IMG/VR virus record: IMGVR_UViG_3300045988_001900
Coordinates: 1 to 6,121 of that record
Direction: 5' to 3' (one strand)
Origin: a virus
DNA: 6,121 nt
The first letter of the stretch is position 1. The number at the start of each line of letters is the position of its first letter. The translations under genes and the position numbers were made by a program. The notes beneath the pieces were generated by a model that saw nothing but the letters and a program-made list of their open reading frames with translations, was not told where the DNA came from and made no database searches. Positions 1 to 6,121 of this stretch are shown piece after piece.

Positions 1-55
1 GCTCTTTGCGTCTTAATTCTGACCTTTCCGCCCTCTCAATCCGTGCAACAGAATA
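1..55. repeat. Terminal direct repeat (left copy), an assembly overlap of a circular genome
   Basis: gctctttgcgtcttaattctgacctttccgccctctcaatccgtgcaacagaata is identical, by eye, to 6067-6121. The unit length is therefore 6066 nt. Confidence 0.97.
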
Positions 56-794
56 CCTCCAGCGTTGGAAAGAAGTAGTTCAGTTTAGTAGTAAGGACTA
101 TTCGGACCAAATGGCTGCTCAATTCGGTATTAAAGCCCCCGAATACATGGGCAATCATGCACATTATATTGGCGGTTGGTCTAGTGTAATTAATATTAAT
201 GAGGTAGTTAATACTAATCTTGATTCTGATTCTTCTCAGGCTTCTATTGCTGGCAAAGGTGTATCTAGTAATTCCGGACATACTATTACTTATGACTGTG
301 GCGCTGAACATCAGGTAATTATGTGTGTGTATCACGCTGTACCTATGCTGGATTGGAATCTGACTGGCCAAAATCCTCAACTGACCGTGACTGCTATCTC
401 TGACTTTCCGCAACCTGCATTTGACCAGCTTGGTATGCAGGCTGTTCCTGCCCTTAATCTTCAGAACAACCCTGGACGTGGTGTTTCTGGTTCTCTTGGT
501 TATAACCTCCGTTATTGGCAATGGAAATCTAATATTGATACCGTTCACGCTGGATTTCGTGCTGGTGCTGCTTATCAGTCTTGGTCTGCTCCTCTTGATG
601 GCTGGCAGGTATTAACTTCTTCTGGTGCTTGGTCTTACCAGTCTATGAAAGTTCGCCCTCAACAGCTGAATTCTATATTCGTCCCTCAAGTTGATGCTGC
701 TAACTGTTCTATTGCATTTGACCAGTTGTTGTGTAATGTTAATTTCCAAGTATATGCCGTACAGAACTTGGATAGAAATGGTTTACCTTATTAA
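1..794 (+). CDS. VP1: Microviridae major capsid protein, C-terminal part (continuation of 5118..6066 across the circular junction). The joined product is about 580 aa.
   Basis: The frame is open from the left edge (positions 1-2 finish a split CGC codon) to TAA 792-794. The TTG 'start' at 6 in the track is an artefact of the window edge. The sequence IRATEYLQRWKEVVQFSSKDYSDQMAAQFGIKAPEYMGNHAHYIGG matches the capsid block lR-x-A-x-x-lQ-x-w-x-E ... RY-x-E ... FGV ... yLGG as I recall it. Confidence 0.93.
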   Translation, partial: SLRLNSDLSALSIRATEYLQRWKEVVQFSSKDYSDQMAAQFGIKAPEYMGNHAHYIGGWSSVININEVVNTNLDSDSSQASIAGKGVSSNSGHTITYDCGAEHQVIMCVYHAVPMLDWNLTGQNPQLTVTAISDFPQPAFDQLGMQAVPALNLQNNPGRGVSGSLGYNLRYWQWKSNIDTVHAGFRAGAAYQSWSAPLDGWQVLTSSGAWSYQSMKVRPQQLNSIFVPQVDAANCSIAFDQLLCNVNFQVYAVQNLDRNGLPY

Positions 795-805
795 TTTGTA
801 TTGTT

Positions 806-1246
806 ATGAGAAATTTTGCTTATAAAAACCCTGATTATATTAAAAACGAGGTTATTCCCGAGTTGATTGAGGATAATCCGTGTTACCAACAGTCTGTCTA
901 TGATTCAGTTATGTACGATGAGTCTCCTGACGGTGATTTGATTCAATGTGATATGACGCAGATTCTATTAAATCAGGAGAAGTATCGTCGTTTGCTTGGT
1001 GATATGAATGTTCAGAATATTCTTGCTCAAATGCATCCTACTCAGTCTACTATAATGGACGGTATGACTGATGAGGAACGTTTTGATTGTGTTATCTCCC
1101 GTCATTGTCAAACTATGTCTGAACGTCAGGCTGTTCTACAGCAGTTGGCTGGTGAGAAGTCTGAACTATCGGCTTATGCCGAATCTATGTTGGCAGAGAA
1201 AAAGGCAGCGCCGTCTTCGGATTCCGCATCTGCCTCTCCTGAATAA
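806..1246 (+). CDS. Hypothetical acidic 146-aa protein, possibly an internal scaffolding protein (VP3-like) judging only by size and position between VP1 and VP2
   Basis: ATG 806 lies 11 nt after the VP1 stop. The third-position T bias matches neighbouring genes. Its TAA (1244-1246) overlaps the next ATG (1246-1248) as TAATG. The product is rich in D/E/Q with an Ala/Ser-rich tail. I recognise no motif. Confidence 0.75.
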   Translation: MRNFAYKNPDYIKNEVIPELIEDNPCYQQSVYDSVMYDESPDGDLIQCDMTQILLNQEKYRRLLGDMNVQNILAQMHPTQSTIMDGMTDEERFDCVISRHCQTMSERQAVLQQLAGEKSELSAYAESMLAEKKAAPSSDSASASPE

Positions 1247-2388
1247 TGGGACTATTTGATGCTATAGCTTCCTCGGCTGCAAACCTTACCGACAATGTTG
1301 TCGGTATGGTTAATCAGAATCATCAGAATAAGGTTAATCTCCGCATGATGCGTGAACAAAACGCGTTTAATGCTCAACAGGCTCAACTACAACGTGATTG
1401 GCAGCAACAGATGTGGGGCATGAATAATGCCTACAATTCTCCTAACGCTATGATTTCTCGCGGTTTGAATCCGTTTGTTCAAGGTTCTGCTGCTATGGCT
1501 GGTTCTAGGTCCCCTGCTTCAGGCGGAGCTGCTGCTACTGCTGCTCCTGTTCCTAGTATGCAGGCCTATAAGCCTAATTTTTCTAGCGTGTTTCAGTCTC
1601 TTGCTTCTCTTGCTCAAGCTAAGGCTTCTGAGGCTTCTGCTGGTGAATCGGGCGCTCGCGCTAAACAAACTGATACGGTAACTCCTCTTTTGTCTGATTA
1701 TTATAGAGGCCTTACTAATTGGAAAAATCTAGCTATTGGCTCTTCCGGTTATTGGAATCAGGAAACAGGCCGTATATCTGCTGCCCTGGACCAGTCTACC
1801 GAGGCCCAGAATCTAAAAAACGCTCAGTTTGCTGAACGTATTTCTGCTGCTCAGGAAACACAGATTTTGCTTAATTCTGAAGCTCAACGTATTATGAATA
1901 AATATATGGACCAGAACCAACAGGCTGATTTGTTTATTAAGACTCAAACCTTATCCAATCTTCAGGCCCAAGGTGCTCTTACTGAGAAGCAAATCCAGAC
2001 TGAAATTCAGCGTGCTATTCTTACTGCTGCTGAGGCTTCTGGTAAGAAAATTGATAATCGTGTGGCTTCCGAGACGGCTGATTCTTTGATTAAGGCAGCT
2101 AACGCCTCTAATGAATTGCAATATCGTGATAGTACGTATGATTATAAGAATGTTAAGCTTCGTAAACATACGGAGTATAAAACTTCTATGGCTAATCAGA
2201 AAGCCGCTGAGTATGGTGCGGACTTGGTTCGCAAACAAGGCCGTACTCATTATTGGGAGTCTGTTGCTCGTGGTGTTGGTAGTATTGCTTCTGGTGCTGG
2301 TAATTTTATTGGTTCATTTCGCCCTGGTGCTAATATCTATCGTAATGATTATGGCCCCCGTAATACTACTATTTATAACGGCCGATAA
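1246..2388 (+). CDS. VP2: Minor capsid / DNA pilot protein (VP2 or H-like), 380 aa
   Basis: The N-terminus MGLFDAI...NQNHQNKVNLRMMREQNAFNAQQAQLQRDWQQQMWGMNNAYNSPNAMISRGLNPF fits the pattern I recall for gut-microvirus VP2. That pattern is MGLF..., then a Q/N-rich helical stretch, then YNSP-x-A-x-x-x-R-x-x-x-GLNP. A long Q/A/E-rich, coiled-coil-like middle and a Gly-rich C-terminus follow. It ends in tandem stops, TAA 2386-2388 then TAA 2389-2391. Confidence 0.85.
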   Translation: MGLFDAIASSAANLTDNVVGMVNQNHQNKVNLRMMREQNAFNAQQAQLQRDWQQQMWGMNNAYNSPNAMISRGLNPFVQGSAAMAGSRSPASGGAAATAAPVPSMQAYKPNFSSVFQSLASLAQAKASEASAGESGARAKQTDTVTPLLSDYYRGLTNWKNLAIGSSGYWNQETGRISAALDQSTEAQNLKNAQFAERISAAQETQILLNSEAQRIMNKYMDQNQQADLFIKTQTLSNLQAQGALTEKQIQTEIQRAILTAAEASGKKIDNRVASETADSLIKAANASNELQYRDSTYDYKNVKLRKHTEYKTSMANQKAAEYGADLVRKQGRTHYWESVARGVGSIASGAGNFIGSFRPGANIYRNDYGPRNTTIYNGR

Positions 2389-2575
2389 TAACATGAAATT
2401 GTATAATTATACTGTTTGTGTCCTGACACCCTGGCATACTTCAGAACTAAAAGCCCATCGCGGCGTTTGAGCGATATACACCCGCTGCCCGCGTAGGGCC
2501 TGATCGAAAAACGGAGCGGAGCGACTTCCTTAAAGAAGCGTCCCGCTTCGGTATTTTAGCACGTAGGTGCGCAAA

Positions 2576-2598
2576 GGCAAGACAGTTTCTGCCTTGCC
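2576..2598 (+). repeat. Inverted repeat / hairpin GGCAAGaCAG-ttt-CTGcCTTGCC
   Basis: 6 bp plus 3 bp of Watson-Crick pairing with one A/C mismatch and a TTT loop, read directly. GGTG (2566-2569) and CACC (2608-2611) could extend the stem. Confidence 0.7.
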
Positions 2599-2603
2599 GT
2601 GCC

Positions 2604-2618
2604 TATACACCCTGTATA
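2604..2618 (+). repeat. Inverted repeat / hairpin TATACA-ccc-TGTATA
   Basis: A perfect 6-bp stem with a CCC loop. Its left arm plus loop (tatacaccc, 2604-2612) also occurs as a direct repeat at 2475-2483. Confidence 0.6.
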
Positions 2619-2636
2619 CGTCCACTTGTTAATTAA

Positions 2637-2663
2637 GCGAAGCCCCTAGTTGTGTGCGAAAGC
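2637..2663 (+). other. Twin mini-hairpin motifs GCGAAGC (2637-2643) and GCGAAAGC (2656-2663)
   Basis: Both exact strings are present on the + (virion-sense) strand, 12 nt apart. My by-eye scan found no other copy in the window. Confidence 0.6.
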
Positions 2664-2664
2664 A

Positions 2665-2687
2665 AATTCGAGTTATCCTCTCGAATT
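2665..2687 (+). repeat. Inverted repeat / hairpin AATTCGAG-ttatcct-CTCGAATT
   Basis: A perfect 8-bp stem with a 7-nt loop, enclosed by the long-range helix 2648-2656 / 2708-2716. Confidence 0.7.
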
Positions 2688-2764
2688 CTCTATCCCTTGT
2701 CCATAAACGCACAACTCACACTCCGTCACAAATGGTCTTATCCCTATAGTTTCTAAAAAAAATA

Positions 2765-2795
2765 TTTGGAAATACAAAAAAAACTCATACCTTTG
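2765..2795 (+). promoter_or_regulatory. Bacteroides-type promoter: -33 TTTG (2765-2768), 19-nt spacer, -7 TAccTTTG (2788-2795)
   Basis: It is an exact match to the TTTG / TAnnTTTG consensus described for Bacteroides primary-sigma promoters. It sits in a 20%-GC tract carrying two A8 runs (2755-2762 and 2776-2783), about 50 nt upstream of ATG 2846. I found no other exact TAnnTTTG by eye. Confidence 0.55.
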
Positions 2796-2845
2796 CCTCA
2801 TGTAAAAGTTACAACTATTATTAACCTTTTAAAATTATTACAATT

Positions 2846-3040
2846 ATGCAGAAATTTATTATTTCAGTCAAAGAAAAAACTACTGGCCGCGATGTTATTC
2901 CGCCTTATATTGTCAATTCTCTCGATGGTCTTGGAGATTATTCTGAGCGAGTTTCTCCGTTGGGTCTTATTGTTATTGTGGATTCAATTAAAGAAGAAAA
3001 TAATTTTATTGAACTTAAAACTCAAGCTGATGAAAAGTAG
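2846..3040 (+). CDS. Hypothetical acidic 64-aa protein, the first ORF downstream of the predicted promoter
   Basis: It has an ATG start in an A/T-rich context like the other genes and a strong third-position T bias (ttt att att ... gat gtt att). It ends in TAG at 3038-3040. I recognise no motif. Confidence 0.6.
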   Translation: MQKFIISVKEKTTGRDVIPPYIVNSLDGLGDYSERVSPLGLIVIVDSIKEENNFIELKTQADEK

Positions 3041-3113
3041 TAATATTTGGAAAATTATTATCGGTGCTGTTTCTGCCGCATTAGGCTATATTTTAAATGC
3101 TATCGGACTATGA
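3030..3113 (+). CDS. 27-aa single-pass membrane peptide (MKSSNIWKIIIGAVSAALGYILNAIGL), a candidate holin-like or lysis accessory peptide
   Basis: The ATG at 3030 overlaps the end of the 64-aa ORF by 11 nt. Its TGA (3111-3113) overlaps the peptidase ATG (3110-3112) as ATGA, which suggests translational coupling. It has a polar, K-containing N-terminus followed by a 19-20 residue hydrophobic segment, and a moderate third-position T bias. The short length limits certainty. Confidence 0.4.
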   Translation: MKSSNIWKIIIGAVSAALGYILNAIGL

Positions 3114-3418
3114 ATTATACTCTTATGCATTTTCTTGAGTATCTGCTCTACTCTAATGTTCATTTTTCGGTGACTAGTGCTAGACGTACTCCTGAACAGA
3201 ATAAAGCTTGCAATGGTTCCCCGAACTCTCAGCACCTTGTAGGCGAGGCTGTTGATATTAAGCCTTATGGCTCTACTACATTTAGTAAGTTGCTTGAAAT
3301 GATTCATATCTTTTCGGATAATGTTTCGCCATTCGACCAGCTTATTATATATCCGACATTTATTCATGTTTCATTCTGCTCTCGTAATCGTCGGCAGGTG
3401 ATAGATAAACGTAAATAA
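3110..3418 (+). CDS. Zinc D-Ala-D-Ala carboxypeptidase-like peptidase (MEROPS M15 / Peptidase_M15_3-like), 102 aa; putative endolysin
   Basis: VTSARRTPEQNKACNGSPNSQHLVGEAVDI carries the family block S-x-x-R-t-p-x-x-N ... S-x-H-x-x-G-x-A-x-D, with H42 at nt 3233-3235 and D49. A distal His lies in TFIHVSF (H86, nt 3365-3367), which completes the H/D/H metal triad. I prefer ATG 3110 over the track's TTG 3047 because of the ATGA coupling with the upstream peptide. Confidence 0.85.
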   Translation: MNYTLMHFLEYLLYSNVHFSVTSARRTPEQNKACNGSPNSQHLVGEAVDIKPYGSTTFSKLLEMIHIFSDNVSPFDQLIIYPTFIHVSFCSRNRRQVIDKRK

Positions 3419-3420
3419 CT

Positions 3421-5100
3421 ATGAAATTTTCTCCTGATTTACTGAAAGCGGCTGACCATTGTCAGCATCGTTCGTTTATTACTAATCGTTACAACGGTGC
3501 ACGTATTGCCGTGGATTGTGGCCAATGCGATTATTGTATCCATAAGCGTGCTCAGAAAGCGTCCATGCGTGTGAAGACCGCTGGAAGTGCTTTTAAGTAT
3601 TCTTATTTTGTAACTCTTACGTATGACAACGAACATATTCCTCTTATGAATTGTAAGGTTCTTCACAGTGAATATGAGGACGTTTTAGGTATCTCAGGAG
3701 ATATTCATTTTGGTGATGAATATCATAAATATATCCCTGTTTCCGAGTATCGATGTAATGATAACTCCTTGCTGCGCCATATATTTTTCGAGCAGGTACA
3801 AGGTACAGTGCCGTTTGACCGTGAGATTAAGAAATATGTTCCTGTTAGGGATAATTGGTTTCTTAGTATGGCTGCTATTCGTAGTTTTATCTATAAGACG
3901 CAATCGGTTGACAAAACGGATTATCCCGCTTCTGAACAATACGGTCGTGATAACCTTATTCCCTTTTTAAACTATGTTGATGTTCAGAATTATATTAAAA
4001 GATTACGTAAATATTTATTTCAACAACTAGGAAAATATGAAACGCTACATTTCTACACTGTCGGTGAGTACGGCCCTGTCCATTTCCGTCCGCATTATCA
4101 TCTCTTACTATTCACAAACTCGGAGAAAGTCTCCGAGGTTTTACGATACTGTCACGCTAAGAGTTGGAAGCTCGGTCGTTCAGATTTCCAACGTTCCGCT
4201 GGTGGAGCTGGTTCGTACGTTGCGAGTTACGTTAACAGCTTGTGCTCTGCTCCCTTATTATATCGCTCATGCCGCTCATTTAGACCCAAGTCGAGAGCGT
4301 CTGTCGGATTCTTTGAGAAAGGCTGCGATTTCGTGGAAGACGAGGACCCTTATGCGCAGATTGAACAAAAAATCGATTCTGTCGTTAACGGAAGATGCTA
4401 CAACTTCAACGGTATCAGTGTTCGGTCAACTCCACCCCTGTCGTATATCCGTACCTTACTCCCCCGATTCTCGTCTGCTCGCAATGACGATGGTGTTGCG
4501 ATTGCTCGAATTCTTTGCGCTGTCCATTCAACGCCAAAAAGAATTTCAAGATTCGGATTTGTTGACTACAAACAGGACTTAATTTTGAGTCTTGTCCGTA
4601 CTTATTATCAATATCTTAAGGTTAATCCTATTCTTACTGATGATGACAAGATTATATTACATGCTTCTCGGTGTCTTACTAGGTTTGTTAACTGTTCTAG
4701 TGATGTCGATATTGAATCTTATATTAATAAGCTATATCGGCTGTTCTTATATGTCTATAAGTTCTTTCGGAATTGGCATTTGCCTCTCTTCGGCTCTGAT
4801 ATTAGTGCTTATTTCGGTCGTATTATGTTTATCATTAAAACAGGTATAGAGTATGAAAAGAAAAAGGATTATGAAAGTCTACGAGATGTATTCAACATAC
4901 GTTCCGCTAACCCGAACATATCGGATTGCATGTTTGCGTTGCCTGCGAACGGGCAGGAGCGTGATGTCTTGTCGGACGTTTCATGTGAAACGGTTCAACT
5001 CCTTGAGCAACTTCGGTATCGTAGTGCAACATTCTGTCGTGATATGATTAAGCATAAGAAGCTTAATGATGCTAATAATATTTTCAACCGTATGGTTTAA
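3421..5100 (+). CDS. VP4: Replication initiation protein (VP4 / phiX174 A-like HUH rolling-circle endonuclease), 559 aa
   Basis: Motif 1 is FVTLTY (aa 63-68, nt 3607-3624). Motif 2 is HYHLLLF (HUH, aa 225-231, from nt 4093). Motif 3 is YVASYVNS with two tyrosines spaced as Y-x-x-x-Y (aa 266 and 270, nt 4216-4230), as in phiX174 protein A. An N-terminal Cys/His cluster reads HCQH...CGQCDYCIH (aa 13-41). Confidence 0.93.
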   Translation: MKFSPDLLKAADHCQHRSFITNRYNGARIAVDCGQCDYCIHKRAQKASMRVKTAGSAFKYSYFVTLTYDNEHIPLMNCKVLHSEYEDVLGISGDIHFGDEYHKYIPVSEYRCNDNSLLRHIFFEQVQGTVPFDREIKKYVPVRDNWFLSMAAIRSFIYKTQSVDKTDYPASEQYGRDNLIPFLNYVDVQNYIKRLRKYLFQQLGKYETLHFYTVGEYGPVHFRPHYHLLLFTNSEKVSEVLRYCHAKSWKLGRSDFQRSAGGAGSYVASYVNSLCSAPLLYRSCRSFRPKSRASVGFFEKGCDFVEDEDPYAQIEQKIDSVVNGRCYNFNGISVRSTPPLSYIRTLLPRFSSARNDDGVAIARILCAVHSTPKRISRFGFVDYKQDLILSLVRTYYQYLKVNPILTDDDKIILHASRCLTRFVNCSSDVDIESYINKLYRLFLYVYKFFRNWHLPLFGSDISAYFGRIMFIIKTGIEYEKKKDYESLRDVFNIRSANPNISDCMFALPANGQERDVLSDVSCETVQLLEQLRYRSATFCRDMIKHKKLNDANNIFNRMV

Positions 5101-5117
5101 TTTAATATTTATAAACT

Positions 5118-6121
5118 ATGAGTGATTTTAATCCTTTAGACCGAGCTAAGATTCCTACCCATCGGTCTTCTTTCGACTTGAGCTCGAAAAAATTGTTTAC
5201 AGCCAAAATCGGCGAGATTCTTCCTTGCTATTGGCAGATTGCTATTCCCAATACGAAATATCGTATTTCCTCTGACTGGTTTACCCGTACTGTTCCGGTT
5301 AATACGGCTGCTTATACTCGTATTAAGGAATATTATGACTTCTACGCTGTGCCGTTACGTCTGATTTCCCGTGCTCTTCCGCAGGCATTTACCCAAGTGA
5401 CTAATTATATGACGAGTGCGTCAAGTGGTGATGAGAATACTACTGCATTAAGTTCTGTCCCTTATACTACTATGGCTCAGTTTAATAATCTATTGCTTAC
5501 TCTGAACGCTGGGGACCAGTCTAATGCTCGTGATGATGCTGGTCTTCCCTATGTCTATGGTACTTGTAAGTTATTGGATTTACTTGGCTATGGGTCTATA
5601 ATTGATAAGACTAATACGGCTAAGGCTGCGATTACTAAGAAATATTTGGGTCTTGATGGTCTTGGCGATGGAGATAACCCCCTTGTGTACTCTGTAAGTC
5701 AGACAGTAAATATGCTTCCTATTTTCACTTATCAGAAGATTTATTTTGATTTCTTCAGCAATTCCCAATGGGAGAAGCATTTAGCTTATGCTTATAATGT
5801 GGATTATTGGCAAGGCACCAGTTATATTACATTATACCCCGATATGCTTAAGCTGCGCTATGCAAATTATCCGAAAGACTACTTTATGGGTATGCTTCCC
5901 TCTTCTCAGTATGGTTCGGTAGCTGTTTTGCCTCAGTCTTATTCTCCTTCTATTTCCTCTAACTTGATTCTTTCTTATAATTCGGTTCCTTCTACTTCTG
6001 GGGTGACTAATCCTGTCGGTACCACTTCTGTTATTACTGACTCTTCTAACTCTTCGGGTTCTCCTCGCTCTTTGCGTCTTAATTCTGACCTTTCCGCCCT
6101 CTCAATCCGTGCAACAGAATA
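5118..6121 (+). CDS. VP1: Microviridae major capsid protein (VP1/F-like), N-terminal part. It has no in-window stop and continues at the left edge of the window through the terminal duplication.
   Basis: This ORF is absent from the supplied track because it has no in-window stop. Hand translation from ATG 5118 (TAA at 5112-5114 lies just upstream in frame) gives 334 codons with no stop: MSDFNPLDRAKIPTHRSSFDLSSKKLFTAKIGEILPCYWQIAIPNTKYRISSDWFTRTVPVNTAAYTRIKEYYDFYAVPLRLI... Blocks I recall as typical of microvirus capsids are present: the R-x-x-F-D/L-S start, the aromatic block ending in VP-x-R-L, YQKIYFDFF, and KDYF-x-G-x-LP-x-x-QYG. The frame matches ORF 6..794 once 6067 is equated with position 1 (6072-5118 = 954 = 3x318). 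Codon third positions are T-rich, as in the other genes. Confidence 0.93.
   Translation, partial: MSDFNPLDRAKIPTHRSSFDLSSKKLFTAKIGEILPCYWQIAIPNTKYRISSDWFTRTVPVNTAAYTRIKEYYDFYAVPLRLISRALPQAFTQVTNYMTSASSGDENTTALSSVPYTTMAQFNNLLLTLNAGDQSNARDDAGLPYVYGTCKLLDLLGYGSIIDKTNTAKAAITKKYLGLDGLGDGDNPLVYSVSQTVNMLPIFTYQKIYFDFFSNSQWEKHLAYAYNVDYWQGTSYITLYPDMLKLRYANYPKDYFMGMLPSSQYGSVAVLPQSYSPSISSNLILSYNSVPSTSGVTNPVGTTSVITDSSNSSGSPRSLRLNSDLSALSIRATE
6067..6121. repeat. Terminal direct repeat (right copy), an assembly overlap of a circular genome
   Basis: Exact 55-nt copy of positions 1-55. The capsid reading frame is preserved across the junction. Confidence 0.97.

Follow-up and report, generated by a model that had tools for sequence, protein, structure and literature searches.

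How microviruses outside the phiX174 group lyse their hosts is still an open question, and such viruses are among the commonest in mammalian guts. A peptidase has long been the only lysis candidate. Peptidases of the M15_3 family were found in 11 gut Alpavirinae and Gokushovirinae, for which an endolysin role was proposed (Roux et al. 2012, PMC3394797), and peptidases were listed among the accessory lysis genes of microviruses (Kirchberger et al. 2022, PMC9239249); marine microviruses also carry them. Yet the peptidase has no means of passing the membrane and is missing in some relatives. We analyzed this question in IMG/VR virus record IMGVR_UViG_3300045988_001900 (positions 1 to 6,121; this whole stretch of 6,121 nucleotides (nt) is called the window below), in which a gene for a 27-residue membrane-type peptide directly precedes a gene for a 102-residue M15 peptidase. 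An earlier inspection made without database searches (the sequence-only reading) had proposed that the two genes form a miniature holin/endolysin pair, and had rightly taken M15 peptidases in microviruses to be already known. What is new here is the peptide, a conserved unannotated gene. It sits exactly at the position expected for a partner of the enzyme, persists in genomes without the enzyme and has been overlooked by annotation; a described transmembrane (TM) or holin partner of microviral peptidases was not found in the literature searched.

The 27-Residue Peptide Gene

The open reading frame (ORF) of the peptide extends from ATG at position 3030 to TGA at 3111–3113, is 84 nt long and encodes MKSSNIWKIIIGAVSAALGYILNAIGL. 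As read from the letters alone, it ends in an ATGA overlap with the 102-codon ORF (3030–3113 and 3110–3418, respectively), and its product has a single hydrophobic stretch, approximately W7–L27 (about 21 residues), which reaches the C-terminus and has a 19-residue Kyte–Doolittle maximum of 2.03. The N-terminus is short, polar and Lys-bearing, with K2 and K8 on the N-terminal side. No Pfam or PHROG match was obtained for the 27-residue product, and it was unannotated in every GenBank relative inspected. At 84 nt, the gene is shorter than the minimum that common gene callers accept.

The peptide is a real gene under purifying selection. Its ORF was intact in 85 of the 94 loci first examined and in 13 GenBank relatives, and it was present in all 80 IMG/VR loci reached through the peptidase (68–100% identity); two apparent exceptions among the peptidase loci were explained by a GTG start codon and by a duplication of 27 nt at the junction. 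Nucleotide diversity at codon positions 1, 2 and 3 was 0.10, 0.007 and 0.35, respectively (82 distinct nucleotide versions). This pattern indicates coding in the peptide frame only, since the peptidase frame would read 0.35, 0.10 and 0.007; in-frame conservation in relatives, which the sequence-only reading had presupposed, is thus established. The core IGA(V/I)SAALGY(I/V)LN was practically invariant, and the mean pairwise identity was 0.91 for the peptide, 0.85 for the 64-residue protein encoded upstream of it and 0.75 for the peptidase. An origin of the ORF as a by-product of T-rich third codon positions was also considered and was rejected for positions 3041–3109, where selection acts in the peptide's own frame and the middle bases are not T-dominated.

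A second peptide family (MKSETKSKIWSAIIAAAVSLLTSIAQIFS, 29 residues) was found at the same position in a sister clade (51 genomes), with codon-position diversity of 0.026, 0.020 and 0.166; it is probably related to the 27-residue family. Together, the two families (27–29 residues) were intact in more than 150 related genomes.

The stop of the 64-residue gene comes 8 nt after the peptide ATG, so that the two ORFs overlap by 11 nt. The 64-residue gene, the peptide and the peptidase are therefore chained, with the replication initiator gene VP4 close behind.

The 102-Residue Peptidase

The peptidase ORF extends from ATG at position 3110 to TAA at 3416–3418. The M15 assignment, which had been made by eye, was borne out by a hidden Markov model search: the product matched Pfam PF08291 (Peptidase_M15_3) with 35.8 bits, above the curated cut-off of 23.2 (E 9.3e-9), over profile positions 43–107 of 108. 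PHROG 894, 'endolysin', was matched with E 2e-14. Residues R26, H42, D49, D76, H86 and R94 were invariant across 14 diverse homologues from microviruses and tailed phages, with identities as low as 33%. R26, H42 and D49 align to R138, H154 and D161 of the zinc DD-peptidase of Streptomyces albus (PDB 1lbu), positions which we take to be the conserved Arg and zinc ligands of that enzyme. Judged by these alignments, the predicted metal site H-x6-D...H and the conserved Arg are intact. A catalytic residue of the HxH/ExxH/DxxH type ahead of the last His was not evident; invariant D76 may replace it in the predicted peptidase.

An AlphaFold2 (AF2) model built from 53 sequences had a predicted local distance difference test (pLDDT) value of 90.6. 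Its best PDB folds were 1lbu (probability 1.00, TM-score 0.53), VanY and LdcB, and 41 viral M15A models were similar to it at E ≤ 1e-3, the best of them being phage M15A peptidases, including those of other microviruses. The peptidase is confidently predicted to have the LAS fold. Compared with the usual enzymes of 130–160 residues, it is without the first 35–40 residues. The peptidase of this clade makes up over 7,900 protein clusters in public data, and the matches listed from among them all had 97–104 residues; shortness is thus usual in the clade. By sequence, the product is classified as a member of M15_3 and of the known microviral peptidases, differing only in this shortening. Its highest 19-residue hydropathy was 1.03, with no TM, signal, signal-anchor-release (SAR) or hydrophobic N-terminal segment.

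Homologues belonging to PHROG 894 were found in lysis cassettes of other phages. Bacteroides phage BS-TP3 has an annotated holin followed by the endolysin, Stenotrophomonas phage Siara has the endolysin followed by a holin/antiholin and then spanins, and IMG/VR contigs with such a homologue carried endolysin, holin and spanin genes.

An upstream start of the peptidase (TTG 3047 in the window) was rejected, because that frame has near-invariant third and variable first positions and stops in several relatives. In GenBank, the peptidases of Dulem virus 238, 243 and 226 are annotated with 124 residues from an upstream ATG overlapping the unannotated peptide (1506–1880 of L003, PP511332; 1509–1883 of L004, PP511322; 1512–1886 of L005, PP511489). 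The extension is poorly conserved and contains stops in 4 of the 13 GenBank relatives (L001, L006, L007, L012); it is wrongly annotated and non-coding. A full-length M15 peptidase of 134 residues was found in the cultured Bacteroides fragilis microvirus phiHBP1 (L011, PV598014, 84–654, minus strand). There it is preceded by a 54-residue ORF that is not of the membrane type, and a homologue of the TM peptide was not found; phiHBP1 would be a useful experimental comparison.

Co-Occurrence of the Peptide and the Peptidase

IMG/VR was scanned with a degenerate DNA pattern for IGAVSAALGY, independently of the peptidase. The pattern recovered 105 microvirus genomes, besides two chance matches in a tape-measure gene. 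The peptidase followed the peptide in 98 of the 105 genomes, and in 149 of 156 when both families were counted, being directly downstream in all 51 genomes of the second family. In the other 7 of the 105 (L215, L228, L236, L238, L249, L264, L288), the 64-residue gene and the peptide lay before VP4, with a spacer of about 50 nt between. An M15 homologue was absent throughout these seven genomes (best tblastn E 0.05), and no other recognisable wall enzyme was found among their ORFs. Four of the seven had all other genes intact, and the peptide core carried synonymous changes only.

The reverse arrangement, a peptidase without the peptide, was seen in none of about 140 genomes. All loci sampled through the peptidase had a TM peptide directly upstream, the synteny that the sequence-only reading had proposed as a check, and this adjacency was kept across two peptide families with differing spacers and frames. 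The peptidase is dispensable, being lost or swapped where the peptide is kept. The peptide occurs without the peptidase in 7 of 105 genomes and the reverse in none, so that the enzyme probably depends on the peptide and not vice versa. The idea of a miniature holin/endolysin pair is therefore retained only in part: a genuine conserved membrane-type peptide is coupled to a genuine signal-less M15 peptidase, but the pair is not a dedicated one, as seven genomes have the peptide only.

In the VP4 tree, the seven peptidase-less genomes were scattered inside the 80-tip clade of the window, each nearest to peptidase carriers. All but L236 (...SFGG) had a peptide that ends in ...IGV and, ahead of VP4, similar T-rich spacers of about 50 nt. 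This shared end and spacer in genomes scattered over the tree suggests that the junction module moves by recombination and does not reflect seven separate deletions. Small TM ORFs were also sought beside full-length M15 genes on IMG/VR contigs of 5–8 kb; such pairs were convincing only on pieces of lysis cassettes from tailed phages, not in microviruses.

The Junction Between the Two Genes

In nearly all loci with the 27-residue family, the stop offset was +1, which gives the ATGA overlap. In the second family, the spacer to the peptidase was usually 3 nt but variable, and the relative frame varied too. The conserved trait is the close adjacency of peptide and peptidase, not the overlap.

Several rearrangements were observed at these junctions. 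A 27-nt tandem duplication in L049 (approximately 430–460) copies the last part of the peptide ORF ahead of the peptidase, and in L291 and L050 tandem duplications of 12–30 nt affect the end of the 64-residue gene upstream of the peptide. The gene junctions appear to be hot spots of slippage or recombination. A 24.7-kb contig (L293, Logan SRR29466483) contains at 9878–12225 a block corresponding to window positions 2987–5180 with about 81% identity. The block holds the end of the 64-residue gene, the peptide, the peptidase, VP4 and the first 20 VP1 codons; it is surrounded by genes of tailed-phage type (D5-type primase, dUTPase, Bro-N, T5orf172), with no capsid or pilot gene, and the peptide forms the C-terminus of a 113-residue ORF whose N-terminal part is unrelated. 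Either the assembly is chimeric or the microviral module has really been captured.

A Putative Hierarchical Lysis Cassette

We interpret the locus as a lysis cassette with a hierarchy, in which the peptide would be the core membrane-acting effector and the peptidase an accessory exploiting it. With the lysis role presumed, we give this reading a probability of about 0.45. It builds on two real genes under selection, on the family, fold and metal site of the enzyme, and on the adjacency and one-way co-occurrence described above. We infer that the peptide would insert into the inner membrane with its N-terminus inside and the helix spanning the bilayer. It would accumulate late, by low-level translation through coupling to the 64-residue gene, self-associate by the small-residue face G12/A13/S15/A16/A17/G19 and damage or depolarise the membrane, acting as a self-sufficient effector. 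The peptidase would be made by reinitiation at ATGA and would remain cytoplasmic, having no export signal of its own. It would reach the cell wall only through the damage made by the peptide, and would then speed or complete wall breakdown and so bring about lysis. Such an enzyme could be a horizontally acquired add-on that lineages may lose.

Without a signal or SAR sequence, the peptidase needs a membrane lesion to reach murein. A dedicated holin would not be expected to outlive its endolysin, and a signal-less enzyme would be useless alone; the two-tier model therefore fits the one-way dependence. The peptide may make lesions itself, in a holin-like way, or may block a host membrane enzyme of murein synthesis. 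Its near-invariance is better explained by a specific helix–helix interaction, as in single-gene lysis peptides. The extreme conservation of the peptide and its persistence without the enzyme lean towards the murein-synthesis block, whereas the strict adjacency of a signal-less enzyme leans towards lesion-making.

Several points weigh against this cassette. The peptide has neither a charged C-terminal tail nor a match to a holin family. Holins of a size near 27 residues are not known, nor is a 27-residue helix known to make a lesion as large as an enzyme of about 12 kDa needs. If the peptidase-less genomes lyse their hosts, membrane damage alone must suffice there, since they have no other wall enzyme, and this is not the rule in Gram-negative bacteria. 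Adjacency is weak evidence, because the whole genome is syntenic within the clade, and tailed phages have M15A domains in entry proteins associated with the virion as well.

A bolder form of the hierarchy, which we regard as doubtful, though not negligible, would make the 27-residue peptide the smallest autonomous phage lysis protein. As a single-helix 'protein antibiotic' or a membrane disruptor, it would burst the host (probably a member of Bacteroidales) alone, the peptidase being a later, dispensable add-on and the system an intermediate between single-gene and holin–endolysin lysis. In that case, a very abundant clade of gut microviruses would have the peptide gene as its core lysis gene.

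Alternative Explanations

The peptide could instead be a single-gene lysis (Sgl) 'protein antibiotic', whose helix blocks a host membrane enzyme of murein-precursor synthesis, the peptidase being separate and helping only once the wall has failed. Phages with small genomes typically lyse in this way, and LysM (PMC12506998) provides a 37-residue single-helix precedent. Persistence of the peptide under selection in genomes without a wall enzyme agrees with this explanation, as does a start overprinted on another gene, like that of phiX174 E; a helix that is almost invariant while its neighbours diverge fits a specific target better than a self-assembling pore. It leaves unexplained, however, why an export-less peptidase is strictly placed beside the peptide and never found alone; 27 residues would be below any known Sgl, and no target can be deduced from the sequence. 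We consider it improbable, though far from negligible. About equally improbable is that the peptide has a non-lytic membrane role (superinfection exclusion, a part in the virion or in entry, or the anchoring of replication or assembly), with the peptidase acting independently in entry or in another route of release. The occurrence of the peptide without the peptidase, the weakness of adjacency as evidence of shared function in a fully syntenic clade, the M15A domains in virion-associated proteins of tailed phages and the lack of any holin or lysis family match would agree with such a role. Nevertheless, the peptidase was never seen without a TM peptide directly upstream, in two families and with variable junctions, and no other lysis candidate was found in these 6-kb genomes. 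The closest non-microviral relatives of the enzyme are free-standing endolysins in lysis cassettes, and a T=1 microvirus capsid has little room for an extra enzyme.

Two further explanations concern the product itself. The true product could be a 73-residue, three-helix protein starting from ATG 2892, a holin of ordinary size of which the 27-residue ORF would be only the last helix or a second isoform, begun at an internal start. In 125 of 128 variants, the +1 frame of the 64-residue gene was open; with the protein fixed and codons used as in the whole genome, this is unlikely (P about 0.01, range 0.003–0.05). Synonymous-site diversity of the 64-residue gene was 0.20 against 0.25–0.34 in the other genes, with the reduction most evident in codons 11–60, and gene callers called the long ORF in 219 protein clusters. 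However, T-rich third positions make +1 frames open and hydrophobic throughout the genome (22% of 61-codon windows elsewhere are open), and most of the signal disappeared under within-gene codon shuffling (P 0.1–0.8). Three genomes have stops inside the long form with the 64-residue ORF and the short peptide intact, the second peptide family has no conserved counterpart, and the second codon position is the most variable of that frame. A protein search with the 73-residue form matched the same clade only. We hold the long form to be quite unlikely as the true product; it is probably a by-product. Least probable of all, and rejected here, is that a frameshift or stop readthrough fuses the helix to the peptidase, giving a self-exporting endolysin with a signal anchor (SAR-like). 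Like SAR domains, the helix has much Gly, Ala and Ser; with its N-terminus inside, the fused enzyme would lie in the periplasm; and in some genomes of the second family both ORFs are in frame with one stop and one codon between them. Nevertheless, no slippery heptamer precedes the peptide stop, stops lie a few codons upstream of the peptidase ATG in the four relatives named above, the relative frame and the spacer of the two ORFs differ between genomes, and the peptidase-family proteins listed, at 97–104 residues, are all too short for a helix extension.

Genome Organization

The window carries an exact 55-nt direct repeat at its ends (1–55 and 6067–6121) and therefore represents a circular genome of 6,066 nt. 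It has a G+C content of 41% and is T-rich, and every gene lies on the plus strand (Table 1).

Table 1. Features of the window; positions are those of the 6,121-nt stretch.
Feature	Position	Strand	Basis or remark
Major capsid protein VP1	~5115 across junction to 794	+	
146-residue gene	806–1246	+	
Pilot protein VP2	1246–2388	+	
Largest non-coding stretch, 457 nt	2389–2845		
64-residue ORF, acidic, conserved, no assigned function	2846–3040	+	Codon-position diversity; overlaps peptide start
Possible 73-residue long form in the peptide frame, three hydrophobic segments	2892–3113	+	Overprinted on 64-residue gene; probably by-product
27-residue single-helix membrane peptide gene (MKSSNIWKIIIGAVSAALGYILNAIGL)	3030–3113	+	In-frame conservation in more than 100 genomes
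ATGA overlap of peptide stop and peptidase start	3110–3113	+	Predicted termination–reinitiation coupling
102-residue Peptidase_M15_3, predicted LAS-fold zinc peptidase, N-terminally shortened, no export signal; candidate endolysin, accessory	3110–3418	+	Pfam/PHROG/AF2
Replication initiator VP4	3421–5100	+	Starts 2 nt past peptidase stop

The nearest GenBank records came from dog faeces (unclassified Microviridae; MG945572 has 86% identity across 89% of the window) and from lemurs ('Dulem' viruses). VP4 was 30% identical to VP4 of the cultured B. fragilis microvirus phiHBP1. A prophage copy was not found in 185,579 representative bacterial genomes scanned with the peptidase and with VP4. By analogy, a Bacteroidales host would be our guess for the virus.

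The codon-position diversity of the 64-residue gene (0.12/0.04/0.20) shows that its frame is coding. The gene adjoins the peptide in the peptidase-less genomes as well, and its product had no Pfam or PHROG family match. It avoids codons that give stops in the +1 frame (P ~0.01 against genome codon usage); together with its low synonymous diversity, this may reflect overprinting or another constraint.

Within the largest non-coding stretch, positions approximately 2470–2640 are conserved in relatives, where they read as an ORF of 40–48 residues, 'MERSDFLIGA...'. A start codon for this ORF is absent in the window, so the conservation more likely reflects a DNA element, for example an origin or a promoter. 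Rfam and inverted-repeat scans gave nothing relevant, and the stretch 2389–2845 had no Rfam match.

Third codon positions in the genes of the window are 54–63% T, and the +1 frame of every gene is therefore long, stop-poor and very hydrophobic. Examples of such ORFs are 1475–1681, 2111–2470 and 4592–4849. This effect is a trap when membrane ORFs are hunted in microviruses.

Comparison with Known Systems

The enzyme is similar to the microviral M15_3 peptidases and the PHROG 894 endolysins in its Pfam family, metal-binding residues, predicted LAS fold, accessory status and proposed lysis role. It differs from them in its length of 102 residues, with the N-terminal 35–40 residues missing, and in that the catalytic residue before the last His is not evident.

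Known holins have roughly 60 residues or more. The peptide resembles them (the single-TM class III type and pinholins) as a small membrane protein whose gene lies immediately before that of a signal-less wall hydrolase, with translational coupling between the two, and its Gly/Ala/Ser helix face would suit self-association. With a hydrophobic stretch of about 21 residues, it is predicted to have one TM domain, the least that a holin needs. Unlike holins, however, it ends inside the helix (...LNAIGL-stop) with no hydrophilic charged C-terminal domain, as does the second family. At 27–29 residues, it is also far more conserved than its enzyme, persists without an endolysin and has no profile match. 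Judged by its sequence, the peptide is not classifiable as a holin, for want of the charged C-terminal domain and of family similarity; its near-invariance also sets it apart from holins, which evolve fast.

The Sgl peptides offer another comparison. Protein E of phiX174 blocks MraY, and LysM of levivirus M, with 37 residues, blocks MurJ (PMC12506998). The peptide shares with them the tiny genome, the single helix under high constraint, the overprinted start and, in seven genomes, the lack of a wall enzyme. Unlike them, it usually comes with a murein peptidase, an enzyme missing from Sgl phages, and no known Sgl is as short.

Small membrane-depolarising toxins of type I toxin–antitoxin systems, such as TisB with 29 residues, are similar in size, single hydrophobic helix and short polar N-terminus, and a collapse of the membrane potential would be plausible for the peptide too. 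In contrast to TisB, the peptide is encoded by a virus, has no antisense RNA context and shows no sequence similarity.

Set beside these systems, the locus is a minimal lysis module, in its presumed role, with the 27–29-residue membrane component as the more fundamental part. If the peptide is a holin, the minimum size of holins is redefined. Should it lyse on its own, it would show how a single-gene system gains an endolysin in nature, and would be a 27-residue lead to a new antibacterial target in Bacteroidales.

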